DNA of 64,000 bases, from positions 176,141 through 240,140 of the forward strand of contig JAXGMP010000004.1 in assembly GCA_040768605.1 (NCBI GenBank), read 5' to 3'. Below, in pieces: positions 3,422 to 51,049 of the stretch. Source of the stretch: Anaerolineae bacterium (GTDB lineage: Bacteria; Chloroflexota; Anaerolineae; UBA1429). The notes below the pieces were generated by a model, which did no database searches, was not told the DNA's origin, and saw only the letters and a program-made list of their open reading frames with translations. The position numbers and the translations under genes are program-made. Positions within the stretch are counted from its first letter, which is position 1. Every line of letters starts with the position of its first letter.

Positions 3422-3429
3422 GGCGCTGT

Positions 3430-3717: not shown

Positions 3718-4422
3718 CTACAGGTCCTCGACCCTGCGTTTGTAGAAGCTCTCGTAATAGTTGGCGTACTCCTCGTGCGTCCAGCGGGCGCTGTCGTAGA
3801 TCTCCCGTGTGGCAAACTCCTCGAGCCGCATGAAGGCGAGATGCTTGTTGTATCCGGCGCGCAGGGTGAGCTCGGCCACCTCTCGTGTGCATATGAGGAG
3901 AGAGTAGCCGAAGACGCCGAAAAAGTCGGAGCCGTCCCAGCTGGCCTCGTCTATGGCCGTGCCGTGGGGCAGCGGCGCGAGGTCCTTGGGGAAGGCGTAT
4001 TCGGCACGGTGGCAGACGGGGCAGGGGCTCTCGGCGAGCGGCGGCTCGAGCAGGCGGACGAAGGAGGTGGCCTGCACCCAATAGTACTCGGGCACCTCGG
4101 TGGGGAAGGGCTTCTTGGTGCGCTTGCTCCAGCCGGTGACGTGGACGGGCGTGGCGCTGAAACCGGTCAGGCCGTGGGCGCGCCACAGGTCGACCAGGTC
4201 CTGGCGGAGCACCAGCCAGATGTCCGCCACATGGAGGACGTCGACAAAGCCGCGGCGGCCGAGGTGGTCGATCACGGCGTGGTAGGCGTCGTGCTGCTCC
4301 TCGATGAAGCGGTTGCACGCCGGGCAGGGGTGCCCGCTCCAGTCGGTCACTCTGCCACTCGCCATGAGATGCGTTTCGTCTACCACCGTGCTCCACAGGA
4401 TGTAGAACCGGCGCTCTTGCAT
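3718..4422 (-). CDS. putative cognate immunity protein with two CxxC motifs (paralog 1)
   Basis: MQERRFYIL...CPACNRF...CPVCHRAE...RRVEDL*. GGAGGT lies before the ATG at 4422, 23 nt downstream of the toxin stop. Confidence 0.75.
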   Translation of the reverse strand: MQERRFYILWSTVVDETHLMASGRVTDWSGHPCPACNRFIEEQHDAYHAVIDHLGRRGFVDVLHVADIWLVLRQDLVDLWRAHGLTGFSATPVHVTGWSKRTKKPFPTEVPEYYWVQATSFVRLLEPPLAESPCPVCHRAEYAFPKDLAPLPHGTAIDEASWDGSDFFGVFGYSLLICTREVAELTLRAGYNKHLAFMRLEEFATREIYDSARWTHEEYANYYESFYKRRVEDL

Positions 4423-4445
4423 GGTACCTCCACATCCAGGACGGA

Positions 4446-5465: not shown

Positions 5466-5638
5466 CCGCTGGCCGGCAAAGGCTTTCTAGGGATGTTAAG
5501 GTGCACACTGGTCGCTAGGCGTTGCCAGTGTACTTGACATGGTCGTATGCTACGCTAGGCGAAGCCGGGGCGCAAGATGCGCGCGGGCAGGAAATCCTTC
5601 CAGCCCGCGCGCCTGGGAACCGGCGCTCAGCAAGCCCC

Positions 5639-6337
5639 TCACTCCGTCAGCACGAAGGAGGCCACGATCAGGTCGGCCGCCTCTTCCTCCGCCGCGCTCA
5701 GCGTCTGCCCGCGTGAGACGTCCCCCCGCAGGTCGAGCGACACGGTGAAAGCGCGCCCGTCCCGCTCTATCTCGCGGGCCGCGTCGTACAGCACGCCGTG
5801 GTGCTGCCCCTGGGCCACCAGCACCACCCGGTCGACCTCCTCACCGAGGAACAGGACGCTCCCCATGGTCAGCAGGTCCCCCGAGCCGACGCCGGTGCGC
5901 GTGATCTGCTGGTCCTCCGCGGTGCGCTTGAAGGCGATGCTCAGCATCCCGAGCGACCCGGCCGGCGGCTCCAGCTGGACGAGGTGGTCCACCATGGTCG
6001 AGGGGGGCGCGGGCGGCGGCAGAACGGTCCAGTCGGGCGGGTAACGGAAGGAGAAGCCGTAGGCCGTGCTCGCCCAGGTTGGCCAGCCGGCATAGTCGAA
6101 CGGCGTCGGCGTCGGGGCCGGCGGCGGGGCGCTGGGCGCGGGGAGGGCGCTGGGCGCGGGGAGGGCAGTGGGCGCCGGGGTGGCGGTCGGGGGCGCCGTT
6201 TCCCGCGCCGGCACCGCCGTCGGCCTCTCTGCCGACGGCGGCGGGGGCGGGGTAGGGCGCGGCGCCAACGCCGCGCAGCCGCTCAGCGCCAGGGTCACCG
6301 CGAGCGACAGGCTCAGCACGAACAGGGGCGTCCTCAT
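5639..6337 (-). CDS. hypothetical lipoprotein with a Pro/Ala-rich linker
   Basis: MRTPLFVLSLSLAVTLALSGC lipoprotein signal, followed by a P/A/T-rich low-complexity stretch and a globular C-terminus. Confidence 0.6.
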   Translation of the reverse strand: MRTPLFVLSLSLAVTLALSGCAALAPRPTPPPPPSAERPTAVPARETAPPTATPAPTALPAPSALPAPSAPPPAPTPTPFDYAGWPTWASTAYGFSFRYPPDWTVLPPPAPPSTMVDHLVQLEPPAGSLGMLSIAFKRTAEDQQITRTGVGSGDLLTMGSVLFLGEEVDRVVLVAQGQHHGVLYDAAREIERDGRAFTVSLDLRGDVSRGQTLSAAEEEAADLIVASFVLTE

Positions 6338-15058: not shown

Positions 15059-15675
15059 AGACCGTTGGCCCCTTCCTCGGCGGTCAGGATGGCGGCCTCC
15101 TCCTCCCCGGCGGTGAAGGTGAGGCGCACGTCCTCATAGTTCAGGTAGCCCACCAGCACCACGCCGGAGAGCATCACCAGGTATACGTAGGGCGGGCGGA
15201 CGGTCACGTACAGGAACAGGGCCAGGCCCAGGACGACGGCCTGCAACAGCATGGCGAACGCCCACGAGTAGCGGCGCATGGCCAAGAGCGTCAGGCCGAT
15301 CACCAGCCCGGCGGGGGCCAGCGGCAGGTAGACCAGGGCGCTGGCGATGCCCTGGCCCACCAGCGCCTGGGCCCCTCTGTAGGTGACGAGCAGGGCCAGG
15401 TCCGGCTCACGCACCAGGCGGAGGCTGAGGGGCCCCCCGCCGGCGCCCCAGGCCCCGCCCGACTGACGGACGACCTCCCGCCCGATCAGGGTCGGGGCCA
15501 GGCCGGCCAGGAAGACCGCCTGCGCCACGAGCAGCAGGCCGCTGATGGTCAGCGCCCAGGTGCGCGCGTGCGGGCGGGTGGTGAAACTGTGTGACGGATG
15601 GGCGTTCGTCATCGGGGATCGCTTTCGCCTCATGGGCCCGGCCAGGGCCGGGTGCAAGCGGCCAACGGGGCACAT
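15055..15675 (-). CDS. hypothetical integral membrane protein (start uncertain: 15675, 15633 or 15612)
   Basis: About five hydrophobic segments. Its TGA overlaps the ATG of the downstream Vps62-like gene (ATGA at 15055-15058). Confidence 0.55.
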   Translation of the reverse strand: MCPVGRLHPALAGPMRRKRSPMTNAHPSHSFTTRPHARTWALTISGLLLVAQAVFLAGLAPTLIGREVVRQSGGAWGAGGGPLSLRLVREPDLALLVTYRGAQALVGQGIASALVYLPLAPAGLVIGLTLLAMRRYSWAFAMLLQAVVLGLALFLYVTVRPPYVYLVMLSGVVLVGYLNYEDVRLTFTAGEEEAAILTAEEGANGL

Positions 15676-28539: not shown

Positions 28540-31098
28540 CTAGCGCCGCAGGACGGGCAGCCAGGCCGTCCAGGTAGACCGCGTGATGTCGATAGTGTGC
28601 ACCGTGGAGACGCTGCCGCCCGTGTTCCCCGCTGTAACGAAGATAACCCGAGGGCCAGCGTCCGCCCACACGTAGGTCGCCGTGGCGCTGCCCTGCCCCG
28701 CCTGCGGCTCTGGCCACCACATGTAGGTCACCGACGGCGCGGTGCTCGCCGGCACCACCGCCGCGGTAAAGGTGTAGGGTACATCGACCTGCCCCTCGGC
28801 CGGGCCGGAGATGGTCACATCGCTCGGGGGGAACTCTTCCGGGACGCAGGCGACCCCCGCGGACCAGGGGCTCGTCACGGTGTTCTGTTGCGTGCCGTGG
28901 GCGCTGGTCACCGTGCGCACGGCCAGGTAGAGGGAGACCCCTGGCTCCAGGCCGTCGAGCGCGGCCCCGTCGGCCGTTTTGCTCGTCGTGGTCACGGCCA
29001 CGGTATAGTCGCCGTCGGGCGCCGTGGCCACGCCAACCTCGTAGTAGCCGGCATCGGCCGTGTAAGGGGTGGGCGTCCAGGTGAGGGTGGCCCCTCCGCT
29101 AGCGGGCGTGGCCGCCAGCCCGGTCGGCGCGATAGTCTGCGTCGTGGCCCAGTCGGGGTCCCTGCTGTTCAGGAAGGTGCGCACGGCCGCGTCCGCCGCG
29201 GAAAGGGCGTTGCAGCCGAGGTCCACCACGTAGGTGTTCAGGTCCTCGGATGACAGCGGTGCCCCCAGCAGCGCGCACCCGGTGATCGTCGCGGGCACCT
29301 GGCCCGCCAGGGCGTTGCGGGCCAGGTTGAGGGTGCGCAGGTCGTCAAGGTCGCCGATCTCCGCAGGGATCGCGCCGTGCAGCCGGTTACCGGCCAGGTC
29401 GAGGACCTGCAGGCTGCCGAGGCCGCCCACCCAGGTGGGGATCTCGCCGCTCAGCAGGTTATCGGCCAGGAGCAGGCGCTCCAGGCTCGCCAGGGTGCTG
29501 ATCCCGTCGGGGATGGGGCCGCTCAGGCGGTTCCGGCTGAGGTCCAGGCTGGCCAGGTTCGTCAGGTTGCCGATCTGGGCGGGAATGGGCCCCTCCAGTA
29601 GGTTGTCGGCCAGTTCGAGGTAGCCCAAGCCGGCAAAGCCGCCCATCCAGGTGGGGATCCCGCCGGTCAGGCGGTTATCGGCCAACAGCAGGCGCTGCAG
29701 GCTGGCCAGGGCAGCGATCTCGTCGGGGATGGGGCCGCTCAGGCGGTTCCGGCTGAGGTCCAGCCGGATCAGTTTCGTCAGGCTGCCGATCTGGGTGGGA
29801 ATGGGGCCGTCCAGTAGGTTGTCGGCCAGGTTCAGCACCCTCAGTTCGGCCAGCGCGCCGATCCCAGTCGGCAGCGGGCTGCTCAGCTGGTTATCGCTCA
29901 GGTCCAGCACACTGAGGTTGCTCAGGCTGCCGATCTGGGGCGGGAGGGGCCCGCTCAGCTGGTTGCCCAACAGGTACAGGCTCATCAGGTCGGTGAGGCC
30001 GCCGATCTCTGGGGGGATGGCGCCAGTCAGGCAGTTGTCGCTCAGGTCCAGCGTATAGAGACTCGTCAGGCTACCGATCTGGGCGGGGATGGAGCCGCTG
30101 AGCTGGTTCTGCCCCAGGGTCAGGTATATCAACCTGCTGCCCAGGCCGCCGATCTCCCCGGGAATGGGGCCGCTCAGCAGGTTGCCTGCCAAGTACAGGT
30201 TCATCAGGTTGGTGAGGCCGCCGATCTCTGGGGGGATGGCGCCAGTCAGGCGGTTGTGGCTCAGGTCCAGCGTGCAGAGACTCGTCAGGCTACCGATCTG
30301 GGCGGGGATGGAGCCGCTGAGCTGGTTCTGCCCCAGGTACAGGTACATCAGGCTGCTGGCCAGGCCGCCGATCTCCGCGGGAATGGGGCCGCTCAGCTGG
30401 TTGTTGGTGATGCCCAGGGTGATCAGATTGACCAGCCCGCCGATCTGCGGGGGGATGGGGCCGCTCAGCGCGTTGCCGTTCAGGACGAGCTTTTCCAGGT
30501 TCGTGAGGCTGCTGAGCCCGGCGGGGATGGCGCCGGTGTACTTGTTTGCGGCGAGATCGAGAGTGGTCAGGGACGTGATATTGCCGAGCCAGGGAGGGAT
30601 CTCGCCGGTCAGCGCGTTCCCCGACACCTGCAGGGTGCGCAGCCCGGTGAGGGCGGATAGCTCTATAGGAATGCTGCTGAACGCGTTATAGTCCAGCTGC
30701 AGGGTTTGCAGGTTTGTGAGGTTGCCCAAGGCCGCGGGGATCGCGCCAACCAGCTGATTCCCCACCAGGGATAAACTGGTGAGCTGGGTGAGGTCGCCAA
30801 CACTGCTCAATAGCGGGCCCTGTAGGCCCCGGTAGTTCAGGCTGAGCTGCGTGACGTGGCCCACCTGGCAGTACACGCCGGAGAGGGAGCAGGGGGTATC
30901 GGTCGGCAACGTCCACGGGTTCGTCCACTGGGATCCGGCGTTGGTGTAGTACAGGTTTTCTAGTGCTAGGTACTCTGTAGGCGGGATCTGCGTTTGCTCG
31001 GCACGCAGGGGGGCCAGCCCCGCAAGGTGTGGCGCCAAGAGCAGGACGACGGCCAGGCAAGACACCATGCGGATAAGGCGGGGAGCAGGATGCGACAT
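28540..31098 (-). CDS. secreted plant-type leucine-rich-repeat protein with C-terminal FN3-like and PKD-like domains
   Basis: Signal peptide. N-cap EYLALENLYYTNAGSQWTNPWTL..PC..SGVYC. More than 20 repeats of about 24 aa fitting LxxLxxLxLxxNxLSGxIPxxIGxL. Beta-rich C-terminus. Confidence 0.85.
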   Translation of the reverse strand: MSHPAPRLIRMVSCLAVVLLLAPHLAGLAPLRAEQTQIPPTEYLALENLYYTNAGSQWTNPWTLPTDTPCSLSGVYCQVGHVTQLSLNYRGLQGPLLSSVGDLTQLTSLSLVGNQLVGAIPAALGNLTNLQTLQLDYNAFSSIPIELSALTGLRTLQVSGNALTGEIPPWLGNITSLTTLDLAANKYTGAIPAGLSSLTNLEKLVLNGNALSGPIPPQIGGLVNLITLGITNNQLSGPIPAEIGGLASSLMYLYLGQNQLSGSIPAQIGSLTSLCTLDLSHNRLTGAIPPEIGGLTNLMNLYLAGNLLSGPIPGEIGGLGSRLIYLTLGQNQLSGSIPAQIGSLTSLYTLDLSDNCLTGAIPPEIGGLTDLMSLYLLGNQLSGPLPPQIGSLSNLSVLDLSDNQLSSPLPTGIGALAELRVLNLADNLLDGPIPTQIGSLTKLIRLDLSRNRLSGPIPDEIAALASLQRLLLADNRLTGGIPTWMGGFAGLGYLELADNLLEGPIPAQIGNLTNLASLDLSRNRLSGPIPDGISTLASLERLLLADNLLSGEIPTWVGGLGSLQVLDLAGNRLHGAIPAEIGDLDDLRTLNLARNALAGQVPATITGCALLGAPLSSEDLNTYVVDLGCNALSAADAAVRTFLNSRDPDWATTQTIAPTGLAATPASGGATLTWTPTPYTADAGYYEVGVATAPDGDYTVAVTTTSKTADGAALDGLEPGVSLYLAVRTVTSAHGTQQNTVTSPWSAGVACVPEEFPPSDVTISGPAEGQVDVPYTFTAAVVPASTAPSVTYMWWPEPQAGQGSATATYVWADAGPRVIFVTAGNTGGSVSTVHTIDITRSTWTAWLPVLRR

Positions 31099-31592: not shown

Positions 31593-33587
31593 CTAGCTGC
31601 GCAGCAGAGGAATGAGCAGCGTGCGATGGTCCGGCGGGGCCGGCTGGGCGAACAGGGCGAACTCCCCGAGGCGGCAGACCGCTACCTGCAGGCGGTTGGC
31701 GCCCGGTTCCCGCAGGTAGGCGGAGGCGGGCGCGCAGGTGGTGGCCGCGTCGACCCAGCCGCCGTCGTCGCGGGCCAGTAGGCGCAGGGTGTCCTCGAGC
31801 AGGCCGGCCACTTCGCCGTCAGAGTAGGTCAGGGCGATCACGGCGGGGAGCCCGAGCGGCACCGTCACCACGTGCCCGAGGCGGTAGGCCGACAGGGCAA
31901 AGGCGCGCCCGGCATAGCGCCAGCCGGCGGGCGGGTCGGTCGGCGCGCCGAGCGGCGTGTAGAGCAGGGTAAAGGTCTCGGTCACCGCGTCCGGCGGGAT
32001 GGTGATGGTGATGCTGCGCCCGCCAGGGCTCGGCAGGGTCAGCGTGCCGCCGGCGCCGGGCGTCACCGCGACGGCCCCCACCTCGAGGGCCAGGAAGGAG
32101 TGCGTGGCCGTCACCGTCTCGCCCGAGCCGACCACCGCCACGGAGACCGTCTTGGGGCCGGTCGTCTCCCACTGGTAGCGGGCGGTGGCCGTCCCCTGGC
32201 CCGTGGTGGGCGCGGGAGACCAGGTGTAGGTCAGCGGTGGCGTGGCGTTGGGCGGGCTCACCGTGGCGGTGAAGGGATAGGTCTGCCCAAGCCCCCCTTC
32301 TGTAGGGCCGGCGATGGCCACCGAAGCGGGCGGGACGGTCACCACGGTGGGAGTGCAGGGCACCTCCGCAGAGAAGGGGCTGACCAGTTCGCTCTGCTGG
32401 ACGTCGTGCGCCGCGGTTACCGTGCGGACGGCGACATAGTAGGTGGTGCCGGGCGTCAGCCCGCCGATCCAGGCACTGGTCGCATGCTTGTCGGCCGTCA
32501 TGTGTCGGACCTCATAGGCCCCGCCCGGTACGGTCGAGACGCCGACCTCGTAGCCGCCCGTGTCGCCGGTGTAGGGGATAGCCGTCCAAGCAAGCGCCAC
32601 GCCGCCTAGGCCCGCGGTGGCCTGCAGGCCGGACGGCGGCACGGTCTGGGTGTTCTCCCAGCCGGGGGCCTTGGCGGCCAGGAAGGCCGTCGGGGAGGAC
32701 GCGTCGGCCCACAGCATATTGTACCCCAACGTGAGCGTTGTGAGGGCCGTCAGGTTGGCCAGGTTCGCCGGGATGGCGCCGCTCAGCCTGTTGGCGTGCA
32801 GCGTCAGGGCCTTCAGGTGGATCAGGGTGCCCAACGCGGACGGGATCGGCCCCTCGAGGCAGTTCCTATCCAGGCGCAGGTTGGCCAGGCTCGTGGCGCT
32901 GGCCAGGCTGCTGGGGATGCCGCCGTCGAGGGCGTTGCCGCTCAGGTCGAGCTCCTCCAGGGCGGTGAGGTTGCCGATGGCACTCGGGATGGGGCCCGTC
33001 AGTTCGCAGGAATCCAGAAAGAGCTCGGTCAGGTTCGTGAGCTGAAATAACTCGCTCGGGATGGTTCCACGCCAGGGGTTGGTGCACAGGTCGAGCCTGG
33101 TGAGGTTGGTGAGCGTGCCCAGCCAGGCAGGAAGGTTGCCGCTGAGGAGGTTCTGGTCGACGTTGAGGTCCTCGAGCGCGACCAGGTTCGCCATCTCATC
33201 GGGCAGCCCGCCGGTGAGCTGGTTGTCGGAGAGGTTCAGGTAGTTGAGGCCCGTGAGGGCGCCGATCTCTGGCGGGATAGAGCCCTTCAGCACGTTCGAG
33301 GGCAGGTCCAGCCGGGTGACGTGGCGCGGCTCACCGCTCTCCGGCTCGCAGTGCACCCCGTACATGTCGCAAGGGGTATCGTCCAGGGTCCAGGTGGTGG
33401 TCCAGTAGGGCCCGTTCGTGGCGTTGTACAGCGCGACGAGGGCCTCGTACTCGGCGGCCGGGATCTCGGTCTGCTCGGCACGGGCAGGTGGGGTCGTGGG
33501 CCAGGCGCCGCAGAGCGAGGCGCACATCACGAGCGCCAGGGCCAGGCTGGCGGCGCTCCGCATCGGGGGCCTTGCGCGACGGGGCAT
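31593..33587 (-). CDS. secreted plant-type leucine-rich-repeat protein (paralog) with FN3-like and PKD-like domains
   Basis: ATG at 33587 (MPRRARPPMRSAASLALALVMC) is preceded by GGAGGT. N-cap EYEALVALYNATNGPYWTTTWTLDDTPCDMYGVHC. About 9 LRRs. Same C-terminal domain order as 28540-31098. Confidence 0.85.
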   Translation of the reverse strand: MPRRARPPMRSAASLALALVMCASLCGAWPTTPPARAEQTEIPAAEYEALVALYNATNGPYWTTTWTLDDTPCDMYGVHCEPESGEPRHVTRLDLPSNVLKGSIPPEIGALTGLNYLNLSDNQLTGGLPDEMANLVALEDLNVDQNLLSGNLPAWLGTLTNLTRLDLCTNPWRGTIPSELFQLTNLTELFLDSCELTGPIPSAIGNLTALEELDLSGNALDGGIPSSLASATSLANLRLDRNCLEGPIPSALGTLIHLKALTLHANRLSGAIPANLANLTALTTLTLGYNMLWADASSPTAFLAAKAPGWENTQTVPPSGLQATAGLGGVALAWTAIPYTGDTGGYEVGVSTVPGGAYEVRHMTADKHATSAWIGGLTPGTTYYVAVRTVTAAHDVQQSELVSPFSAEVPCTPTVVTVPPASVAIAGPTEGGLGQTYPFTATVSPPNATPPLTYTWSPAPTTGQGTATARYQWETTGPKTVSVAVVGSGETVTATHSFLALEVGAVAVTPGAGGTLTLPSPGGRSITITIPPDAVTETFTLLYTPLGAPTDPPAGWRYAGRAFALSAYRLGHVVTVPLGLPAVIALTYSDGEVAGLLEDTLRLLARDDGGWVDAATTCAPASAYLREPGANRLQVAVCRLGEFALFAQPAPPDHRTLLIPLLRS

Positions 33588-33942
33588 AGGGGGTACCTCC
33601 GCAGTGCTCGCAGGACGGCTCTTCCCAAAGGACGACGCACACACCCAGGGCGAGGCGGGCCTGACGGAGAATGGGTTCGCCGAGATCAGGGCCGCCCCCC
33701 AACGCGGCCCCGTCCCTACGGAGGTGGGGAAGCACGTTCCGCCACGGGCGCGGCGTGAACGGTCCATTCCGCTGGAGCACTGGCTGGTACCGACGGCAGA
33801 GGCGGGCAAGGAGAGAGGGGATGAAGGCTGCCATCGTGCCAGGCGCGACATGACCCACCGCGTACAAGCTCGAGACACCCGTTGCCAGGCATCATACGTC
33901 CCGCGGGGCGCTATGTCAACAGGTTGGCGCAGCCGGCCCCGC

Positions 33943-41306: not shown

Positions 41307-41335
41307 TTGAGACGCGCCTGACGGCAAGGTACAAT
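41307..41335 (+). promoter_or_regulatory. sigma-70-like promoter of the BREX-like operon
   Basis: TTGAGA (41307-41312), a 17-nt spacer and TACAAT (41330-41335), about 108 nt upstream of the ATG at 41443. Confidence 0.55.
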
Positions 41336-41442: not shown

Positions 41443-41880
41443 ATGGCCTTGATCCTTCCGGACGTGCTCGACCTGCATGCGCTTACGGTTCTCGTCAGCC
41501 CGCACATGCGTGAGCTGCGGCGAGCCGAGGAGGACCTCCGCGCGACGCGAGGCTGGCCCGCCCTGTCGGTGAACCGACTGGTGGCGGGGGCCCTGCTGGG
41601 CCAGCCCCAACACCGCTGGCCCCTCATCGTCGAAGATGCGCTGGCAGGGGCACTGGCTCCTATGCCCGAGGCGCCCGTACTGCTGACGGACATATCACTG
41701 CTGCACGAGCCGCGTCTCGCCCTGGACCCCCTGGCCCTGCTGCGCCGCCTGACCGCGCAGCATACGCTCGTCGTTCTGTGGCCGGGCTCTTGCGACGGAA
41801 TGCGGCTCTGCTACGCCACCCCGCAGCACTCCCACTATCGGGCGTGGGACGCGCAAGGCCTGGGCGTTGTAGCCCTCTGA
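41443..41880 (+). CDS. brxF: BrxF-like small protein lacking a Walker A motif
   Basis: The C-terminal half (VLLTDISLLHEPRLALDPLALLRRLTAQHTLVVLWPGSCDGMRLCYATPQHSHY) matches my recollection of BREX type-3 BrxF. There is no GxxxxGK[ST] anywhere in the 145 aa. It is the first gene of the operon. Confidence 0.5.
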   Translation: MALILPDVLDLHALTVLVSPHMRELRRAEEDLRATRGWPALSVNRLVAGALLGQPQHRWPLIVEDALAGALAPMPEAPVLLTDISLLHEPRLALDPLALLRRLTAQHTLVVLWPGSCDGMRLCYATPQHSHYRAWDAQGLGVVAL

Positions 41881-41898
41881 GGCTCTGGAGGATACACC

Positions 41899-44800
41899 AT
41901 GCTATATCGTGATCTGGTGCAGTTTGACCCGATCGAGTCCGTCATCCGCCTCCGCGAGGCAAGCCAGCGTGAACGCGCCAGAGAGCTGGTGTGCACCTAT
42001 GTGATCTCGGAGCGCATGTCTCAGAGGCTGTGCAACGTCGTCTTGCCGCAGCTGGACCTCGACCGCCCGCGTGACAACAAGGGCGTCCTCATCGTCGGCA
42101 ACTATGGCACCGGCAAATCGCACCTGATGTCGGTCCTGGCGGCCCTTGCCGAGTTCCCGGACCTGGTTGAGCAAGTGAGCGACGCCGATGTTCGGACGGC
42201 CGCGGCGACCATCGCCGGGCGGTTCCGGGTAGCCCGCGTGGAGATCGGTTCCGTCGAGCGGGGCCTGCGTGAGATCGTCCTGGACCAGCTGGAGCAGTCA
42301 CTGGAGGCCTGGGGCGTGCCGTTCCGCTTCCCAGCGGCTGACGAGGTGAGCAACAACAAGGACGCCATTGTCGAGGCGGTGGCCGCCTTCCAGCGCACCC
42401 ACTCTGGGCAAGGGATCCTGGTGGTCGTCGATGAGATGCTCGACTATTTGGTCACCCGTGACGACCGTCAAGTGATCCTCGACCTCGGCTTCCTGCGCGA
42501 GCTGGGCGAGGTGACCTCCGCGACGGCTTTTCGCTTCATCGGCGGCTTGCAGGAAACCCTGTTTGACAGCCCACGCATCGCCTTTGTGGCGGACCGTCTG
42601 CGCCGCGTGCGCGACCGGTTTGAGCAGATCCTTATCGCCCGCGAGGATATCGCCTACGTCGTGGCGCACCGCCTGCTGAAGAAGAACGACGGCCAGATCG
42701 CCTGGGTGCGCGACCATCTGCGTCGCTTTGAACCCCTCTACGACGGCCTGGCGGAGCGCGGGCAAGAGTTCGCCGAGCTCTTCCCCATCCACCCCGCCTA
42801 CATCGATACCTTCCGCGAGGTGTTCGTCGCCGAGAAGCGCCAGGTGCTGGTCACCTTTAGCAAGGCCATCGAGGAGCGCCTCGACGATGAGGTCCCTACG
42901 GACGAGCCGGGAGTCATCTCCTTTGACCACTACTGGCAGGTCCTGCAGGACGATACCGCCCTACGTGGCGTGCGCGAGGTGGCCGAGGTGGAGGACAAGA
43001 GTCGGGTGCTGGCCAGCAAGGTGTGCCAGAACTATGGTGACAAGGGACTGCTCCCGATGGCCCTGCGCATCATCGCTGCGCTCAGCGTCCACCGCCTCAC
43101 CACGCAGGATATCAACGTCCCCGTGGGCCTCACGCCGGAGGGCCTGCGCGACGGGCTGTTCCTGTACCGGCATATGCCCGAGCAGACGGCCCAGTTCCTG
43201 CTCATGCAGGTGCAGGTGGCGCTGAGGGAGATCATGCGCACCGTGCAGGGCCAGTATATCACGCGCAACCCGGCCAACGGCCAGTACTACCTCGACGTCG
43301 CCAAAAGCGTCGACTTCGACGCGCAGATCAGCACGCGCGGGGCCATGCTGCCCACTGACGTGCTGAACCGCCACTACTATGACGCCCTCCGCCAGGCCCT
43401 GAACCTGAGCGACTCGACCTACACGCCCAACTACCGCATCTGGTTCTACGAGCTGCCCTGGGGCGAGCGCCGCGTGACGCGCCCGGGCTACCTCTTCCTG
43501 GGCTTGCCGAACGAGCGCTGTACCGCGCAGCCGCCGCGCGACTTTTACGTCTACTGCCTGCCGCCCTTTGGCGCCACCGAGTGGCTCGACGAGGAAAAGG
43601 ATGACGAGGTCATCCTGGCCCTGCGCGGCACCGACGACGCCTTCGCGGGCCTGGTGCGCAACTTTGCTGCCGCCCGCGACCTGCAGGCCACCTCGGCCCA
43701 GTACCGCAGCGAGTATGCTGGCAAGGCCGAGGGCTACCTCGCCGACCTGGTGAACTGGCTGCGCCAGTACCTGATCACGCACCTGGAGGTCACCTTCGAG
43801 GGGCGGACTCGCCCGGTGTGCGACGTCTTGGCCGAGGCCCGCACGAGCGAGGCCGATAGCATCGCCGCCCTGCTGAACCTGGTCGCCGGCCAACTCCTCG
43901 AGCCCACCTTTGCGGGCGCCTACCCCCACTACCCAGCCTTCCGCCGCGCCCAGGTCACCATCACCGAATCGGCCAGGGACCTCACCGCGACGCAGGCGCT
44001 GCGGGCCATGGTCGGGATGCGCCGCACCGGGCTGGCCGAGGCCGTCCTCGATGGCTTGCGCTTGCTGGGCCCCGACGGCGCCATCCGCCCCTACGATTCG
44101 CCCTACGCCCAGCGCCTGTTGCAGCGCCTGAACGCCAAGCCCGAGGGCCAGGTGGTCAACCGCAGCGAGGTCGTCGAGGTGGTGGCCGGCGGCGTCGACA
44201 ACCCGCTGGAGAAGGAGATCGACTTCCATCTGGAGCCCGAGTGGCTGGCGGTGTTGCTGGCGGCCCTGGTCTACAGCGGCGATATCGAGCTCACCGTCAA
44301 CGGCAAGGACATCAATGCCGGCAACATCGCCGAGCTCGGCAGCATGACGGCCCGGCAGGTGGCCGCCTTCCGCCACTACCGGAGGCCGCCCACCCTGCCC
44401 GTGGGCCGCTGGGCGGACATCTTTGAGGCCCTGGACCTGCCCGCCGGCCTGGTGCGCGATGAGAACACCCGCGAGCAGGCCGTGCGCGATCTGCAGGCCA
44501 AGGTGGGCGCCGGCCTGCGCGACCTCGCGGTCCTCGATCGCCGCGTGACTCAGGGGCCGCGCCTGTGGAACATGCCCCTCTTTACCGATAGCCTGGCCAT
44601 CCAGTCTCAGGATGGGCTGGTGATCGGCAGCGATGCGCCCGCGGTGCGCTTTGGCCAGGCGGACGTTTTGCCGCACCTGCGGGCCTACAGGCGCCTGCTG
44701 GACGGGCTGCAGCCCTACAACACGGTGGGCAAGCTGCGCCACCTGCGCGTACAGCCGCAGGACGTGGCCGACGGCGCCGCGGGGCGGGCCGTGGCCGGCC

Positions 44801-45690
44801 GGATGAGCGACCTCTTGCGCCTCCTCGACCAGTTCCAGGAGCCGGCGGCCTACCTGGCCGCGGCGGCCCCCCACCTGCCCGAGGGGCACCTCCTGCGCGG
44901 CGAGCTGATCCGCACGCGCGAGGCGCTTCTGGAAGACCTCCGCCGTATGGGCCGCGCCGAGGCCCCCGTGCAGCCCGGGGATTGGACCTCGCAGTTGAGC
45001 GCGCTTAGGGAACGCTACGTGCGGGCCTATGCCGAGGAGCACCGCCGCCTGGTGCTCGGCCCGCGCGCTGACGAGCGCCGCCAGCGCATCACCCGGGGTG
45101 AGGCGTTGGGCCTGGTCAGGGCGCTGGACCAACTGCGCATCCTGCCCTCACACGATCTGCGCGCCTGGCAACGGGACCTACAGGCGCTCAAGGCCTGCCC
45201 AGAGTTTCACGAGGGGGTCCTGGCCGATGACCCGCTCTGCCCGCACTGCCGGCTGAGCCCGGCCAACGCCACGGGCGCCGGCAACGCCGAGACGGCCCTT
45301 ACGGAGCTCGAGGAACGGCTCGACACCATACTGAGAGACTGGCGCAACGCCGTGGTCGAGGCGCTGGAGAGCGACGTGGCCCGGGCCAGCCGAGCGGCGA
45401 TGACGGCCGCCGAGCGCCACGCCATCGAGGCCTTCCTGAACCAGCCGGAGGCCATGGTCCTGCCGCAGGGCTTTATCGAGGCCGCCAACAAGGCCCTACA
45501 GGGCATCGAGTCGGTGGCCGTCAGCGTGGGGGCGCTGGTGGAAGCGCTGCGCGAGGGGGGCCTGCCCTGCACCCCCGCCGACCTGCGCGCGCGCTTTACG
45601 AGCTTTATGCAAGAGACCCTGCGCGGGCGCGAGGAGGCCAACACCCGCCTGACCCTCTCCGAAGATCGCACGCTGGAGGCGAGCGCCTGA
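41899..45690 (+). CDS. brxC: large P-loop ATPase, BrxC/PglY-like (DUF6079-like)
   Basis: Walker A VGNYGTGKSHL, Walker B-like ILVVVDEMLDY, a long helical body and a C-terminal CPHC cysteine motif. GGAGGA lies before the ATG. Confidence 0.7.
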   Translation: MLYRDLVQFDPIESVIRLREASQRERARELVCTYVISERMSQRLCNVVLPQLDLDRPRDNKGVLIVGNYGTGKSHLMSVLAALAEFPDLVEQVSDADVRTAAATIAGRFRVARVEIGSVERGLREIVLDQLEQSLEAWGVPFRFPAADEVSNNKDAIVEAVAAFQRTHSGQGILVVVDEMLDYLVTRDDRQVILDLGFLRELGEVTSATAFRFIGGLQETLFDSPRIAFVADRLRRVRDRFEQILIAREDIAYVVAHRLLKKNDGQIAWVRDHLRRFEPLYDGLAERGQEFAELFPIHPAYIDTFREVFVAEKRQVLVTFSKAIEERLDDEVPTDEPGVISFDHYWQVLQDDTALRGVREVAEVEDKSRVLASKVCQNYGDKGLLPMALRIIAALSVHRLTTQDINVPVGLTPEGLRDGLFLYRHMPEQTAQFLLMQVQVALREIMRTVQGQYITRNPANGQYYLDVAKSVDFDAQISTRGAMLPTDVLNRHYYDALRQALNLSDSTYTPNYRIWFYELPWGERRVTRPGYLFLGLPNERCTAQPPRDFYVYCLPPFGATEWLDEEKDDEVILALRGTDDAFAGLVRNFAAARDLQATSAQYRSEYAGKAEGYLADLVNWLRQYLITHLEVTFEGRTRPVCDVLAEARTSEADSIAALLNLVAGQLLEPTFAGAYPHYPAFRRAQVTITESARDLTATQALRAMVGMRRTGLAEAVLDGLRLLGPDGAIRPYDSPYAQRLLQRLNAKPEGQVVNRSEVVEVVAGGVDNPLEKEIDFHLEPEWLAVLLAALVYSGDIELTVNGKDINAGNIAELGSMTARQVAAFRHYRRPPTLPVGRWADIFEALDLPAGLVRDENTREQAVRDLQAKVGAGLRDLAVLDRRVTQGPRLWNMPLFTDSLAIQSQDGLVIGSDAPAVRFGQADVLPHLRAYRRLLDGLQPYNTVGKLRHLRVQPQDVADGAAGRAVAGRMSDLLRLLDQFQEPAAYLAAAAPHLPEGHLLRGELIRTREALLEDLRRMGRAEAPVQPGDWTSQLSALRERYVRAYAEEHRRLVLGPRADERRQRITRGEALGLVRALDQLRILPSHDLRAWQRDLQALKACPEFHEGVLADDPLCPHCRLSPANATGAGNAETALTELEERLDTILRDWRNAVVEALESDVARASRAAMTAAERHAIEAFLNQPEAMVLPQGFIEAANKALQGIESVAVSVGALVEALREGGLPCTPADLRARFTSFMQETLRGREEANTRLTLSEDRTLEASA

Positions 45691-45726
45691 GCCATAGACC
45701 CGACCGCACCAGGAGACACCGATACC

Positions 45727-48396
45727 ATGACGCAGCAGATCACGATGGACACAGAGACCCCGGGCGCCGCCGACCCCGCCCGCCAGGCCGAGCGGCAGGA
45801 ATACCTGGCCCGCCTGCGCGAGTACCTCCAGGACCCCGCCTTTCGCGCTATCGAGGGCTTCCCCATCGGTGAGGATGAGGACATCCTGGCCCTCTCGGAC
45901 CCGCCCTACTATACCGCCTGCCCTAACCCCTTCCTGCCGGAGGTCATCGCCCGCTGGCAGCGGGAGCGCGAGGAGACCCGCCAGGCCCTGGGCCTGCCGG
46001 TGGGGAGCGAGGAGAACTACCGCCGCGAGCCCTTCGCGGCGGACGTGTCGGAGGGCAAGACGGATGCCCTCTACCGGGCGCACTCTTACCACACCAAGGT
46101 GCCGCACCTCGCCATCGTCCCGTCGATCCTGCACTATACGGACCCGGGGGATATCGTTCTAGATGGGTTCTGCGGGTCGGGGATGACCGGCGTGGCGGCG
46201 CAGTGGTGCGGCTCTGCCCCGGAAGAGTACCGGCGCAAGGTCGAGGCGGAGTTTGCCGCGCAAGGCCTGCCCGGGCCGGTCTGGGGGGCGCGGCGCGCCG
46301 TGCTGAACGACCTGGCGCCCGCCGCAACCTTCATCGCCGCCAACTACAACTCCCCCTTCGGTGTGGATGCCTTCGCCGCCGCCGGGCGGCGCCTGCTTCG
46401 GGAGGTGGACCAGGAACTGGGCTGGATGTATGAGACCCTGCACACCGACGGCCAGACCAAGGGGCGCATCGAGTACACCGTCTGGAGCGAGGTCTTTGCC
46501 TGCCCCGACTGTGCCGGCGAGGTGGTCTTCTACGAGGAGGCGTTCGACGCGGACACCAAACGCGTCAGGGATAGCTTCCCATGCCCGCATTGCGCCGCGA
46601 ACCTTACCAAGAACAACCTCGAGAGAGCGTTTGAAACCCGCCCTGACCCTGCCCTGGGGACGCCCTGGAGCAGGATCCGTCTGCGTGCCGTCCTGATCTG
46701 CTACTCGGTCGGGGGAAAGCGCTACGAGAGAACGCCGGATGCCCACGACCTGGACGTTCTCCGGCGCATCGACGCTATGCCGCTACCGGCGGAGATTCCC
46801 ACCAACCGCTTCCCGATCGAGGTGATGTCCCACGGCTCCCGAATCGCGCCCAAGGGATTCACCCACATCCACCACTTTTACCTGCCACGCGCTGCCCACG
46901 CCATGGCGGCGCTGTGGCGCAAAGCCAACGCCCATCCCGATGCCCGCATTCGGCAGATGCTGCTCTTTTTTGTGGAGCAGGCAGCCTGGGGACTGTCGGT
47001 ACTAAATCGCTATGCCCCACTCCATTACTCGCATGTGAACCGCTACCTTACGGGCGTTTACTACGTCGCGTCGCAGCACGCGGAGTGTAGCCCGTGGTAC
47101 ACTCTGCAGGGGAAGCTGCAACGATTGGCTAGGGCCTTCAGCGGGCACGGTGCCAGCGGGGACGCGGCTGCGCTGACTACCGGCACGGCCGCCCGGCTCG
47201 ACCTTGCCGCGGATTCCATCGATTACGTCTACACCGACCCGCCCTTTGGCGAGAACATCTACTACGCCGACCTGAACTACCTGGTCGAATCCTGGCACGG
47301 CGTGGTCACCAACGCCGTGCCGGAGGCCATCGTCGACCGCTTCAAGGGCAAGGGCCTCCCGGAGTACCAGCGCCTGATGCAGCGCTGCTTTGCCGAGTAC
47401 TGCCGGGTGCTCAAGCCGGGCCGCTGGATGACGGTCGTCTTTCACAACTCGCGCAACTCGGTCTGGAACGCCATCCAGGAGGCGATCCAGACGGCCGGCT
47501 TTGTCGTGGCCGACGTCCGCACGCTGGACAAGCAGCAGGGCTCCTACCGCCAGGTAACCAGTAGCGCCGTCAAGCAGGACCTGGTCATCTCTGCCTACAA
47601 GCCTAACGGCGGCCTCGAGGAGGAGTTCCGGCGCACGGCGGGCAGCACCGAGGGCGCCTGGGCCTTCGTGCGCGCCCACCTGGGCCGCCTGCCCGTGCCC
47701 CCAGTGGTGGACGGCACCATCGAGGCCTCTGCCGAGCGCCGCGATTTTCTCCTCTATGACCGCATGGTGGCCTTCCACCTCACCCGCGGCGCCACGGTAC
47801 CGCTCTCGGCCGCCGAGTTCTACGCCGGCCTGCGCGAACGCTTTACCGAGCGGGACGGCATGTTCTTCCTCCCCGAGCAGGCCGCCGTCTACGACCAGGC
47901 CAAGATGGCCGGCGCCGAGGTCCAGCAGCTGACCTTCCTTGTGAGCGATGAGAAGTCCGCCATCCAGTGGCTGCGCCAGCGCCTCAGCCCGGCGTTGGGC
48001 GGCGCCCCAGCCACCTATCAGGACATCCAGCCTAGCTTTCTCCAGAATCTGCACCAATCCCGTTACGAGGCGCTGCCTGAGCTGCGCCAGGTCCTTGAGG
48101 AGGGCTTTCTCGAGGACGACCGCGGCCGTTGGTACGTGCCCGACGGGGGCCGCAGCGGAGACCTGGAGCGCCTGCGCCTGCGCGGGCTCTGGCGCGAGTT
48201 TGATGAGTACGCCGCTGAGAGCGGGCGCCTGCGCGCCTTCCGGTCCGAGGCGGTGCGCGCCGGCTTTGCCCGCGCCTGGGCCGCCCGCGACTATGGCACC
48301 ATCGTGCGCGTTGCCGAGCGCCTGCCCCGCGCGGCCCTCGAGGAGGACCCCGACCTGTTGATGTACTATGACAACGCCACCCTGATGACCGAATGA
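45727..48396 (+). CDS. pglX: PglXI-like DNA methyltransferase (N6-adenine/N4-cytosine type)
   Basis: SAM motif VLDGFCGSGMTG (46162-46188), catalytic TDPPFG (DPPF at 47236-47247), and a four-Cys pair CPDC...CPHC between them. Confidence 0.75.
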   Translation: MTQQITMDTETPGAADPARQAERQEYLARLREYLQDPAFRAIEGFPIGEDEDILALSDPPYYTACPNPFLPEVIARWQREREETRQALGLPVGSEENYRREPFAADVSEGKTDALYRAHSYHTKVPHLAIVPSILHYTDPGDIVLDGFCGSGMTGVAAQWCGSAPEEYRRKVEAEFAAQGLPGPVWGARRAVLNDLAPAATFIAANYNSPFGVDAFAAAGRRLLREVDQELGWMYETLHTDGQTKGRIEYTVWSEVFACPDCAGEVVFYEEAFDADTKRVRDSFPCPHCAANLTKNNLERAFETRPDPALGTPWSRIRLRAVLICYSVGGKRYERTPDAHDLDVLRRIDAMPLPAEIPTNRFPIEVMSHGSRIAPKGFTHIHHFYLPRAAHAMAALWRKANAHPDARIRQMLLFFVEQAAWGLSVLNRYAPLHYSHVNRYLTGVYYVASQHAECSPWYTLQGKLQRLARAFSGHGASGDAAALTTGTAARLDLAADSIDYVYTDPPFGENIYYADLNYLVESWHGVVTNAVPEAIVDRFKGKGLPEYQRLMQRCFAEYCRVLKPGRWMTVVFHNSRNSVWNAIQEAIQTAGFVVADVRTLDKQQGSYRQVTSSAVKQDLVISAYKPNGGLEEEFRRTAGSTEGAWAFVRAHLGRLPVPPVVDGTIEASAERRDFLLYDRMVAFHLTRGATVPLSAAEFYAGLRERFTERDGMFFLPEQAAVYDQAKMAGAEVQQLTFLVSDEKSAIQWLRQRLSPALGGAPATYQDIQPSFLQNLHQSRYEALPELRQVLEEGFLEDDRGRWYVPDGGRSGDLERLRLRGLWREFDEYAAESGRLRAFRSEAVRAGFARAWAARDYGTIVRVAERLPRAALEEDPDLLMYYDNATLMTE

Positions 48397-50333
48397 GAGA
48401 GCGCATCCTGCGCCGCTTCCCCGCCGGGGCGCACCCGCTGGTGCTCGCCTCGGACCCCGACGGCCTCCTGGAGGACGACGACGTCCGGCAGGCCCTGGCC
48501 GGGCGGGGGTACCGGCTCGTCTGCGAGGGCGACCCCTTCGGCACCTGGGCGGCGGCCGAGGCCCTGCGCCCCTGGACGTTCGCCGAGCCGGTGCTGATCG
48601 TAACCCGCGGGCCGCTCGAGGCGCTCCCCTACGACCTGTGGGAGGAGGGGCACCGCGTGGAACTCTCCCTGGCGGACGAGTTCGCGGGTTACTCGCTGCC
48701 GCTCGTCCGCGAGCTGACGCCCGCGCAGCGCCGGGCCCTGGCGGCCGCCGCGCCGCCGGAAGGCCGACTGAACCGCCGCGCCACCGCCGAGGTCATCCTC
48801 CGCGAGGTGTTCGGCGCTGCGCTGCGGTCCCTGGCCGACCCGGGCGCGCTGCTCCTATGGCTGAGCGGGGTGCACGAGGGCACGGGCCCCCTGCCGCCGG
48901 CCATCCGGCGGGCCCTGCTGGGCGACCTGGCAGGGCAGCCGGCCTACCGCGGCTGGCCGCTGGCCGACGTCCTGAGTGACGCGCAGGCCTATCGTGCCTT
49001 TGTGCAGCAGGCCTGGGAACGGCACGTGCGCGGGAGTGCCAGCATAAGGCGCATGGTCGATGGCCAGGGCTCCTACGCCGCAGCCTTTGACGGCGAGCGC
49101 CTGCAGGCCGCCCTGGGGGCGCTGGTGGAGCGCGGGCTGCTCTGCCCGGTGCTGGTCGAGAACCCCGCGGCCTTCCCGCTATGGGCGCGCCCCGGCTTGG
49201 CCAAGGACGAGGCCGCCGGGCTGCTCCGCCGGCTGGAGGAGGTCCATGAGGCGGCCTCCGCGCCCTTGGGCGAAGCCGAAGACTGGGAGGCGGTCGGCCG
49301 CCTGGCGCGCGCCTGGGCGCAGGCGGCCCTGGCCGGGCAGGCCGGCGCGGACCTGCCGGAGGAGGCCAGGGTGCGCTACTGCGACGCAGAGCGGGCCGTC
49401 GACGCGCGTTTTGGGGCTTGGCTGCAGGCTGCGTACACTGCCCTGGCGGGCCGGCGCCTGCCGGAGCCGCACCACGTCCACCACGTGCCCGGGTTCCTGG
49501 CCTACCGGTGGCGGCAGCGCGGGGCCACGGGTCGCGTGGCGCTCCTGGTGCTCGACGGGCTGTCTTTAGCCGATTGGCAGGTTATCGGGCCCGCCTGGCG
49601 TGAGCGGCACCCGGCCTGGGCCCTGGAGGAGCGCCTGCTGCTGGCCCAGGTGCCCACGGTGACGGCCATCTCTCGGCAGGCACTGGTGACGGGGCGCCCC
49701 CCGGCCGACCTGGAGAGCCTGACGAGCGGCGCCGCAGAGGCGGCGGGGTGGCGGGCCTTCTGGCAGGGGGAGGATTTTGCCGAGGAGGTCGTGCGCTACG
49801 AACGGCTGGCCCTGGCGCGGCAGGAGGCTTCGGCCGAGGTGCTGGAGGCCCGCTTTGCCGCCGCCTGCCTGGTAGATAGCAGCATCGATGACCTGGTCCA
49901 TGGCAGTACTCTGGGCGCGGCGCAGCTGCAGGGCTCTCTGCGCCGCTGGCTGGACGACTACTCCCCAGCGCTCGAGGCGGTCATCGACCGCCTGCTGGGG
50001 GCCGGCGTGTCGGTCACCATCGCCAGTGACCACGGGCACGTGGAGGCCAGCGGCATTGGCCGGCCCAACGAAGGGATCCTGGCGGACGCGCGAGCCCTTC
50101 GCTGCCGGGTGTACTCGGACGGCGCCCAGGCCCAGCGGACCGCCGACACGTTCCCGCCGTCCATCGTCTGGGCGGACGATGGCCTGTTGCCCGCCGGCGT
50201 GACGGCGGTGATGCCCGCCCGGCGGGAGGCTTACACGAACCACGGGGCCAAGGTGGTGGCCCACGGCGGCGTGACGATCGAGGAGATGGTGGTGCCGCTG
50301 GTGACGATAGATGGGGAGCGCGCGCGATGCTGA
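48393..50333 (+). CDS. pglZ: PglZ-domain (alkaline-phosphatase superfamily) protein
   Basis: VALLVLDGLSLADW and TIASDHGHVEA...VAHGGVTIEEMVVPL. ATGA overlap with the methyltransferase gene. Confidence 0.8.
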   Translation: MRERILRRFPAGAHPLVLASDPDGLLEDDDVRQALAGRGYRLVCEGDPFGTWAAAEALRPWTFAEPVLIVTRGPLEALPYDLWEEGHRVELSLADEFAGYSLPLVRELTPAQRRALAAAAPPEGRLNRRATAEVILREVFGAALRSLADPGALLLWLSGVHEGTGPLPPAIRRALLGDLAGQPAYRGWPLADVLSDAQAYRAFVQQAWERHVRGSASIRRMVDGQGSYAAAFDGERLQAALGALVERGLLCPVLVENPAAFPLWARPGLAKDEAAGLLRRLEEVHEAASAPLGEAEDWEAVGRLARAWAQAALAGQAGADLPEEARVRYCDAERAVDARFGAWLQAAYTALAGRRLPEPHHVHHVPGFLAYRWRQRGATGRVALLVLDGLSLADWQVIGPAWRERHPAWALEERLLLAQVPTVTAISRQALVTGRPPADLESLTSGAAEAAGWRAFWQGEDFAEEVVRYERLALARQEASAEVLEARFAAACLVDSSIDDLVHGSTLGAAQLQGSLRRWLDDYSPALEAVIDRLLGAGVSVTIASDHGHVEASGIGRPNEGILADARALRCRVYSDGAQAQRTADTFPPSIVWADDGLLPAGVTAVMPARREAYTNHGAKVVAHGGVTIEEMVVPLVTIDGERARC

Positions 50334-51049
50334 TCGGGTTCCGCAGGAACGTCTACCTAGAATGGCTGGAGCAGGCCGCGGCGCTCTTTTGCATGGCGCA
50401 GGACCCCGCCGAGGTGCGGGAGCGGCTGGATGCCGTCGTCGCCCTGACGGTGCAGAGCGGCGTCAACCGTCGGCAGACGCTGGACATCCTCTGTAACATC
50501 TGGGGGCCGCGCGAGGGCCCTGCTGAGCGGCTGCGCGAGGAGGCGCTGCGCATCTACCAAGAGACCACGGCGAACGGACAGCACGTTGCCCTGCACTACG
50601 GCCTGACGCTGATGGCCTTCCCGTTCTTCCGTGAGGGGGCGCGCATCGTCGGGCAGCGGCTGCGCTTCGGCGGGGCCGTGCGTACCGACGAGGTGCGGCA
50701 ACAGCTCCTGGCCAGCCTGGGCAACCTGGGGGCGGCCGCCGACGCCGTAAAGCGGATCATCTTTTCCCTGCGCAACTGGGGCCTCCTCGAGGACTCCGGC
50801 CGGCGGTATGCCTACCAGGCCTGTGAGCCTCGGCTGGCGCTGGGCACCCCGGACGTCGAGTGCTGGCTGCTCGCCGCGACGCTCACGGCACACCCTGCCG
50901 ATGAGTTGCCCTTTGCCGACCTGGTGCGCCTGCCAGAGCTGTTCGCCTTCGAGTTCAGCCTGCGGCCGTACGACCTGGCCGGGGCGTCCAGCTTGCTGGA
51001 CGTCTACCGTTCCGGCGGCGGGTGGGACGCGGTGCGCCTGCGCGACTAG
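50327..51049 (+). CDS. brxA: BrxA-like (DUF1819-like) protein
   Basis: LHYGLTLMAFPFFREG...VKRIIFSLRNWGLLEDS parallels the YPFIRDF...LREAGLL pattern I recall for BrxA. 7-nt overlap with pglZ. Confidence 0.45.
   Translation: MLIGFRRNVYLEWLEQAAALFCMAQDPAEVRERLDAVVALTVQSGVNRRQTLDILCNIWGPREGPAERLREEALRIYQETTANGQHVALHYGLTLMAFPFFREGARIVGQRLRFGGAVRTDEVRQQLLASLGNLGAAADAVKRIIFSLRNWGLLEDSGRRYAYQACEPRLALGTPDVECWLLAATLTAHPADELPFADLVRLPELFAFEFSLRPYDLAGASSLLDVYRSGGGWDAVRLRD

Follow-up and report, generated by a model that had tools for sequence, protein, structure and literature searches.

Introduction

Bacteriophage exclusion (BREX) systems have a sixth 'motor' component, which is BrxL in type 1 and a helicase in types 2 and 3. 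In type 1, a set of proteins without the motor suffices for methylation (PMC9122589, PMC13326643). BrxB binds PglZ tightly and the AAA+ domain of BrxC binds the BrxB-PglZ pair (PMC13326643), while BrxL is dispensable for methylation, variably important for restriction and replaced by helicases in other types (PMC13326643, PMC9122589). PglZ acts as a nuclease that depends on metal, contributing to defence; its activity requires T538 and H741, is worth about 3 logs of defence and is dispensable for methylation (PMC12205998). For type 3, Rakesh & Krishnan 2026 (PMC12839542) report 702 taxa with the helicase BrxHII, a share that they put at 77% of the type-3 systems from 919 taxa. Here, we analyze a five-gene operon of the type 3 kind, brxF-brxC-pglXI-pglZ-brxA, at positions 41443 to 51049 of a 64,000-nucleotide stretch of the Anaerolineae bacterium contig JAXGMP010000004.1 (the whole stretch is called the window from here on), for which no helicase was found.

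We consider it probable that the locus is an intact member, expressed as one unit, of a deep-branching helicase-less BREX type 3 lineage in which a motor-less core methylates and restricts. A motor-less BREX system is suggested because the five genes map onto the set B:C:X:Z plus A, with the PglZ residues, the Walker A and B motifs of BrxC and the PglXI motifs all intact. Complex formation, methylation and phage restriction would follow by homology with type 1 BREX.

Results

The stretch from 41443 to 51049 contains five tightly coupled open reading frames (ORFs), all co-oriented on the plus strand:

41443 to 41880, plus strand: brxF, 145 aa, BrxB-like inactive AAA+/STAND protein
41899 to 45690, plus strand: brxC/pglY, 1263 aa, DUF6079 AAA+ ATPase with Walker A and Walker B
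45727 to 48396, plus strand: pglXI, 889 aa, N6-adenine DNA methyltransferase
48393 to 50333, plus strand: pglZ, 646 aa, type-3 PglZ, alkaline-phosphatase-fold metal-dependent phosphodiesterase/nuclease
50327 to 51049, plus strand: brxA, 240 aa, BrxA-like DNA-binding protein

The ORF list and a motif check recovered the coordinates, motifs, gaps and overlaps that the initial annotation had given for these genes. The first two intergenic gaps measure 18 and 36 nt. The stop codon of pglXI and the start codon of pglZ lie in a common ATGA (48393-48396), and brxA begins 7 nt before the end of pglZ (50327-50333). At a window GC content of about 70%, all five ORFs show the high third-position GC typical of real genes there. 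BrxC carries GNYGTGKSHL from residue 67 (Walker A, GNYGTGKS) and VVVDEMLDY from residue 175 (Walker B, VVVDE). Between motif I (DGFCGSGMTG, residue 146) and motif IV (DPPF at 504, within TDPPFG at 503) of PglXI lies a large target-recognition insert, which is nested and contains Cys clusters, and PglZ shows VLDGLSLADW at residue 386 and ASDHGH at 544.

All five proteins match type-3 models of PADLOC, NCBIfam and Pfam with scores that exceed the curated cutoffs, which bears out the BREX type-3-like character proposed at the outset. BrxF is recognized by PADLOC BrxF (1.8e-17) and NCBIfam BREX_3_BrxF (NF033453; 81.6 bits, cutoff 50), and BrxC by PADLOC BrxC PDLC02482 (1307 bits) and Pfam DUF6079 (1169 bits). 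PglXI matches PADLOC PDLC02541 (1196 bits) and Pfam N6_N4_Mtase and is 52-67% identical to PglXI across the family. PglZ is found by NCBIfam BREX_PglZ_3 (381 bits, cutoff 250) and PADLOC PglZ (384 bits), BrxA by PADLOC PDLC02437 (126.6 bits, residues 3-230 on profile positions 4-228 of 238). Residues D388, T424, D546, H547 and H624 of PglZ are invariant in the family alignment and align to PorX structures, e.g. 7pv7; phmmer of PglZ against PDB sequences gave no match, and PorX was reached only with a family profile. The earlier statement that there is no evident nuclease effector is out of date, as PglZ is itself a nuclease (PMC12205998) whose catalytic residues the window protein keeps.

Two other identities were rejected. 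A type 1 system is contradicted by the lack of BrxL, by NCBIfam type-1 models for BrxC and PglZ that score 40 and 15 bits (cutoffs 400), and by a methyltransferase that is PglXI and not PglX. A type-3 BR (DUF499) system does not fit the full-length DUF6079 ATPase, the multidomain BREX-3 PglZ and the lack of a helicase. Since BrxC, PglXI, PglZ and BrxA are those of type 3, the helicase is lacking and BrxF agrees by half, we class the locus with a variant type 3 lineage devoid of the helicase and not as a canonical member.

The initial annotation had found no helicase-like ORF in the island, and this was confirmed in the operon, within BrxC and across the 64 kb by Pfam and tblastn. The confirmed overlap of pglXI and pglZ leaves the BrxHII slot closed in the window. 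Scanned against Pfam, the plausible genes from 20.8 to 61 kb gave metabolic enzymes, ABC transporters, two leucine-rich-repeat (LRR) proteins and a membrane protein, and no helicase family; scans of the rest of the window returned transporters, TelA, dehydrogenases and several family-less ORFs, again with no helicase. A reference BrxHII taken from a locus of canonical layout (L039:12690-15512, 940 aa; PADLOC BrxHI/BrxHII 1326 bits; SNF2-rel_dom and Helicase_C) gave no tblastn match in the 64-kb window. A helicase domain embedded in BrxC was rejected as well: residues 1-1253 align on DUF6079 profile positions 1-1237 of 1238 without an insert, and since this match spans BrxC end to end, there is no room for such a domain. 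The catalogued subtype itself normally includes the helicase.

The layout is not an assembly artefact, since two independent assemblies of one relative repeat it. The Logan assemblies L081 and L082 are 94.6% identical to the window at the nucleotide level over 9-13 kb and contain the same five genes at identical lengths. The longer L081 also has the same flanking genes and differs from the window by no indels. A sister assembly, L084 (GCA_040771465.1, JAXGHD010000005.1 86032-107636), shows 99.4% identity with 59 indels in 21.6 kb, and in it brxC, pglXI and pglZ are split along with housekeeping genes. Because the indels break housekeeping genes too, the broken BREX genes of L084 are sequencing errors, and pseudogenisation, which these split genes had raised, was rejected, the window, L081 and L082 being intact. 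L084 looks like uncorrected long-read error, and an annotation based on it would give the false impression of a degraded BREX system. The poor quality that assemblies of this organism may have, as L084 shows, is the point in favor of a canonical type 3 locus whose brxHII was lost through a recent deletion or an assembly artefact. However, the indels of L084 are sequencing errors, the pglXI-pglZ overlap recurs in L081, L082, L085 and L088 over PglZ identities from 94% to 49%, and BrxHII is absent clade-wide as described below, which refutes such a removal.

For a species-level sample, one genome per GTDB species was scanned with a PglXI profile. The best 80 loci of this genome-contig scan (L001-L080), to which the window's own genome does not belong, were mapped by tblastn with the five window proteins and the reference BrxHII, and 59 of them show both pglXI and pglZ. 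Absence of BrxHII was judged by tblastn with this one reference helicase within ±10 kb; main-clade BrxHII is 48-87% identical to the reference, so that the search should be sensitive within that range. BrxHII was present in 36 of the 59 loci and absent in 23, where pglXI either abuts pglZ (8 loci) or is separated from it by other genes (15 loci). Helicase absence alone is thus not rare, in agreement with PMC12839542.

A PglZ tree (neighbour-joining, midpoint root, no support values and no outgroup) places the window on one side of the root together with L081, L085, L087, L088, L089, L044, L090, L091 and L092, and L072 joins this group by identity. Identity to the window separates the group from everything else in three proteins: 36-57% against 28-34% for PglZ, 44-71% against 35-42% for BrxC and 33-62% against 23-31% for BrxA. 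The clade consists mostly of Chloroflexota and environmental contigs, and a plasmid search returned only main-clade PglZ at about 30% identity, with no sign that the clade is plasmid-borne. None of 11 clade relatives showed BrxHII by tblastn within ±10 kb. A metagenome scan with a clade-only PglZ profile yielded a best 80 further loci (L093-L172), and these gave no BrxHII match either, bringing the clade to about 91 loci in all.

In the main clade, the helicase almost always lies inside the operon between pglXI and pglZ. Gene tables of window-clade relatives at 39-57% PglZ identity have pglXI overlapping or abutting pglZ. Among metagenome loci with pglXI visible upstream (n=61), the two genes are adjacent in 29 (<200 nt), 200-1000 nt apart in 15 and separated by larger inserts in 17. 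The large inserts that were sampled encode GmrSD (recurrent), Schlafen/AlbA_2, PDDEXK_4, RNase HII/RnlA-like plus TPR-CSD, KAP NTPase plus Hsp70-like and other proteins, and no helicase was found among them. Some relatives also have GmrSD, DUF3800 or NmeDI-like genes between brxC and pglXI. Bare five-gene compact operons like that of the window occur in L088, L115, L120 and L152, and probably in L141 and L170.

Three relatives carry a gene for 124-131 aa in a pglXI-pglZ gap of 480-715 nt (L090 534-908, L091 9564-9959, L092 9608-9991). It sits roughly at the canonical helicase position in one sub-branch of the window clade. The product is PDDEXK_3 in L090 and L091 and has no Pfam match in L092; the gene could be a minimal accessory nuclease. 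In L089 (5687-11304), genes for a 749-aa family-less protein, a UvrD-type helicase and a PDDEXK_1 nuclease lie directly downstream of brxA. These could form a defence module in their own right or, at this locus, stand in for the missing motor.

The helicase is also missing from a second group inside the main clade (L035, L038, L045, L050, L055 and L061, from Gammaproteobacteria and Binatia metagenome-assembled genomes). As in the window, pglXI abuts pglZ (gaps of 51-138 nt) and BrxHII is absent within ±10 kb; unlike in the window, BrxF keeps its Walker A motif and a Schlafen/AlbA_2-HATPase gene lies between brxC and pglXI. On the PglZ tree, this group is nested among helicase-bearing systems and looks like an independent helicase-loss event. 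As it nests in the main clade and keeps the P-loop, helicase loss would have happened more than once and not always together with P-loop loss.

Other variation was seen among the family's loci. A Schlafen/AlbA_2 + HATPase_c_4 + Fic-like_C protein of about 630 aa is encoded in about half of the main-clade loci (L035 7744-9636, L007 7954-9918 and about 40 others), between brxC and pglXI or after pglXI, and is absent from the window; PMC12839542 calls this insert a Schlafen-family backup effector. On the Sporomusa ovata DSM 2662 chromosome (L036, 12688-15655), the usual BrxHII slot holds an NsnB-like AAA_15/AAA_21 ATPase (635 aa) and a 360-aa family-less ORF. Tandem PglXI paralogues occur in L023, L027, L048 and L060 of the main clade and in L167 (2323-8606) and L170 (4053-9348) of the window clade. 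Each copy is 38-61% identical to the window PglXI and full-length, except for the second copy of L060, which aligns in two pieces. Two methylation specificities within one system are possible in these loci.

PglXI of the window may have a history of its own. It is up to 67% identical to that of main-clade helicase-bearing systems (e.g. L083), only 39-60% identical to that of most own-clade members, and 53% identical to that of L085, the closest PglZ/BrxC relative. In a neighbour-joining tree of PglXI, the window, L081 and L141 fall on the main-clade side. This similarity to the main clade, despite PglZ and BrxC kinship elsewhere, suggests that the methyltransferase module has been exchanged between lineages.

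The second trait of the clade concerns BrxF. The NCBIfam entry describes the family as 'P-loop-containing', yet the window BrxF passes the family cutoff without one: no GxxxxGK[ST] is present, the alignment shows LVSPHMRELRR where canonical BrxF has GPxxSGKT, and the Walker B-like region is degenerate in its acidic pair (LLTDISLL) where main-clade BrxF has a conserved LLDN-x-E. A strict Walker A motif was found in 52 of 59 main-clade BrxF proteins and a GKT/GRT variant at the same position in four more; two of the remaining three are mis-called ORFs. By contrast, Walker A is absent in all readable BrxF proteins of the window clade (8/8 in one set, 10/10 in another), while their C-terminal half is conserved (DPLxLL, WPG, YAxPxHxHYRxW). 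The P-loop-less BrxF noted from the sequence is therefore real and specific to this lineage. Inactive BrxF as such is already known, because the PMC12839542 supplement lists BrxF alignments of two kinds, 'iSTAND' and 'Walker A & B intact'.

An AlphaFold2 model of the window BrxF is confident (predicted local distance difference test 87, predicted TM-score 0.83), though the homologue search returned only seven proteins and the underlying alignment is shallow. That few homologues were found is put down to the fast evolution of the family. The best PDB matches of the model are the BrxB chains of 9zll, the Acinetobacter BrxC:BrxB:PglZ crystal complex (probability 0.99, TM 0.52), and AAA+ domains rank after them.

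All five genes evolve under purifying selection. Between the window and L081, the ratio of nonsynonymous to synonymous substitution rates (dN/dS, Nei-Gojobori) was 0.38 for brxF, 0.21 for brxC, 0.21 for pglXI, 0.41 for pglZ and 0.07 for brxA, compared with 0.15 for the flanking aminotransferase gene. The BrxA proteins of the two are 98% identical.

The operon lies among genes for an aminotransferase, dehydrogenases, sugar-phosphate isomerase-type TIM barrels, ABC transporters and LRR proteins, and Pfam scans of the plausible neighbouring genes found no integrase and no other defence genes near it. The host is a Chloroflexota metagenome-assembled genome, and proteins that cluster with its housekeeping proteins bear Chloroflexi or Chloroflexota names. 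A consensus scan for promoters gave four sites in the region where 0.5 were expected, among them the following pair in the divergent intergenic region that brxF has in common with the aminotransferase gene:

41307 to 41335, plus strand: predicted promoter-like site TTGAGA-17-TACAAT, 10/12 consensus matches, a pattern match only, about 108 nt upstream of brxF
41281 to 41252, minus strand: mirror-image promoter-like site, which would serve the aminotransferase gene, a pattern match only

A further promoter-like site, likewise a pattern match only, follows brxA ahead of the next downstream gene. Elsewhere in the window, two adjoining genes on the minus strand (28540-31098 and 31593-33878) encode large LRR proteins of 852 aa and 761 aa, the latter with fn3, a pair that is unusual for a bacterial chromosome. 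Several minus-strand ORFs with good codon bias have no Pfam family, namely those of 239, 245, 237, 544 and 232 aa at 298-6337 and those of 609 and 206 aa at 13229-15675. A 339-aa ORF among the former (4446-5465) has a weak DUF2380 match.

Discussion

By analogy with type 1, BrxF, BrxC and PglZ would form a 'B:C:X:Z'-type complex with PglXI. On host DNA, PglXI within this complex would place N6-methyladenine at a short motif that is not palindromic. Where unmethylated DNA comes in, the core together with the DNA-binding BrxA would block replication, at least partly via the metal-dependent nuclease PglZ. BrxHII of canonical type 3 would then be the counterpart of type 1 BrxL and stand outside the machinery of this lineage, and the pglXI-pglZ slot of relatives would be either closed or used to hold exchangeable accessory nucleases.

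The same five genes could also persist for methylation only. The locus would then be a remnant that has lost its motor and phage restriction and works as an epigenetic or 'orphan' modification module, kept because the methyltransferase needs BrxF, BrxC, PglZ and perhaps BrxA. Type 1 methylation indeed needs BrxB, BrxC, PglX and PglZ, exactly the set retained here, and the metabolic surroundings of the operon, free of integrase and other defence genes, fit this explanation. However, the importance of BrxL for restriction differs between systems (PMC13326643), and methylation can do without the nuclease residues of PglZ (PMC12205998), which are nonetheless invariant throughout the clade. Further, operons of relatives repeatedly hold accessory defence nucleases (GmrSD, PDDEXK_3/4, Schlafen), and the architecture is kept down to about 36% PglZ identity, a long upkeep of 9.6 kb for one mark. 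Invariant nuclease residues and recurring accessory nucleases thus favor active defence, if indirectly, and we regard a methylation-only remnant as unlikely.

A helicase acting in trans was also considered: a Swi2/Snf2 helicase, BrxHII-like or of another kind, would complete the system from a different place in the chromosome, and the operon would merely look reduced. The search covered 64 kb of the host contig (reported as 372,452 bp), and L089 has its UvrD-type helicase and PDDEXK_1 gene about 3 kb downstream of brxA, both of which leave room for this explanation. On the other hand, BrxHII is missing within ±10 kb in about 91 clade loci as well as from the 64-kb window, the UvrD/PDDEXK_1 pair of L089 is absent from the gene tables of the other relatives, and the main-clade helicase is almost always intra-operon, so that dispersal would amount to a lineage-wide reorganisation. 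A helicase in trans is quite unlikely in our view.

Several points weigh against an active motor-less defence system in this lineage. The literature search found no experimentally studied type 3 BREX system, nor one of this lineage. In Acinetobacter type 1, deletion of brxL impaired restriction and left methylation intact (PMC9122589), and by this analogy a motor-less system could be methylation-proficient yet defence-deficient. Purifying selection cannot separate defence from methylation only, because the retained genes are all needed for methylation. The helicase search in the host genome covered only the 64 kb, and the structural match of BrxF to BrxB is modest (TM 0.52, Foldseek E 3.6e-3). 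Finally, 'deep-branching' and the direction of change (loss of the helicase versus its never having been gained) are not established, since the trees are unsupported midpoint-rooted neighbour-joining trees. With these points taken into account, an intact motor-less lineage that methylates and restricts is still the reading that we hold to be probable.

The initial annotation had suggested a reduced or undescribed subtype. 'Reduced' is supported by the absence of BrxHII from about 91 clade loci and by a BrxF that always lacks the P-loop. 'Undescribed' goes too far, as PMC12839542 already records BrxHII-less type-3 systems and both forms of BrxF and thus anticipates the finding in part. Its text, as far as consulted, does not tie BrxHII absence and the form of BrxF to one lineage. 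What is new here is that the two occur together in a single deep clade, made up mostly of Chloroflexota and environmental contigs, that BrxHII absence is clade-wide without exception over about 91 loci, that the pglXI-pglZ junction in this clade is either sealed or a slot for accessory nucleases, and that the window gives an example of the bare core, with its genes under purifying selection.

That P-loop loss in BrxF goes together with helicase absence hints at a functional link between BrxF and BrxHII. This is, however, a lead rather than a correlation: the two traits map to the same clade and constitute a single phylogenetic event, and for that reason no statistical link is claimed. A bolder proposal would be that BrxF:BrxC:PglXI:PglZ with BrxA provide self-sufficient motor-free BREX immunity, that the ATPase of canonical BrxF serves to load or regulate the helicase, and that the helicase/BrxL layer is an add-on. 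The role for the BrxF ATPase is suggested because BrxHII and the BrxF nucleotide-binding site vanish jointly in one ancient lineage. We put the proposal forward tentatively, as a possibility that is more doubtful than established.

The operon reads as a natural minimal BREX system and not as an isolated oddity. A conserved and widespread natural lineage with B:C:X:Z(+A) and no motor suggests that the core may suffice, and the operon is a compact 9.6-kb construct for testing core sufficiency and the effect of added BrxHII. For annotation, rules demanding BrxHII for 'type 3' would miss or mislabel 23 of the 59 complete loci of the species-level sample and the whole Chloroflexota-centred clade.

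Compared with canonical type 3, the window has the same five protein families in the same order (gene order per PMC10799925 and PMC12839542), including a DUF6079 BrxC, a PglXI N6-methyltransferase with nested target-recognition domain, and PglZ, BrxA and BrxF that match type-3 models. It differs in that canonical type 3 has the Swi2/Snf2 helicase BrxHII, the component said to distinguish the type, where the window has no helicase and a translationally coupled pglXI-pglZ pair instead, and in that canonical BrxF carries GPxxSGKT whereas the window BrxF is without Walker A. The reference locus of Roseicitreum plasmid pRA04 comprises a WYL regulator, P-loop brxF, DUF6079, a Schlafen-type gene, a methyltransferase, a helicase, pglZ and brxA; the window, unlike pRA04, has neither the WYL regulator nor the Schlafen-type accessory gene. 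DUF499 BR systems (PMC12839542) share with the window an ATPase, a nested-target-recognition-domain N6-methyltransferase, PglZ and an inactive STAND protein, but their ATPase is of the DUF499 kind, their PglZ is a standalone domain and a BrxHII-like helicase is kept. Type 1 has BrxL as a sixth gene, a PglX with an N-terminal helical domain, and BrxC and PglZ of different subfamilies. Its core BrxB:BrxC:PglX:PglZ (plus BrxA; Acinetobacter, E. coli, Salmonella, E. fergusonii) nevertheless corresponds one-to-one with the five genes of the window, and type 1 BrxB is, like the window BrxF, an inactivated AAA+ protein.

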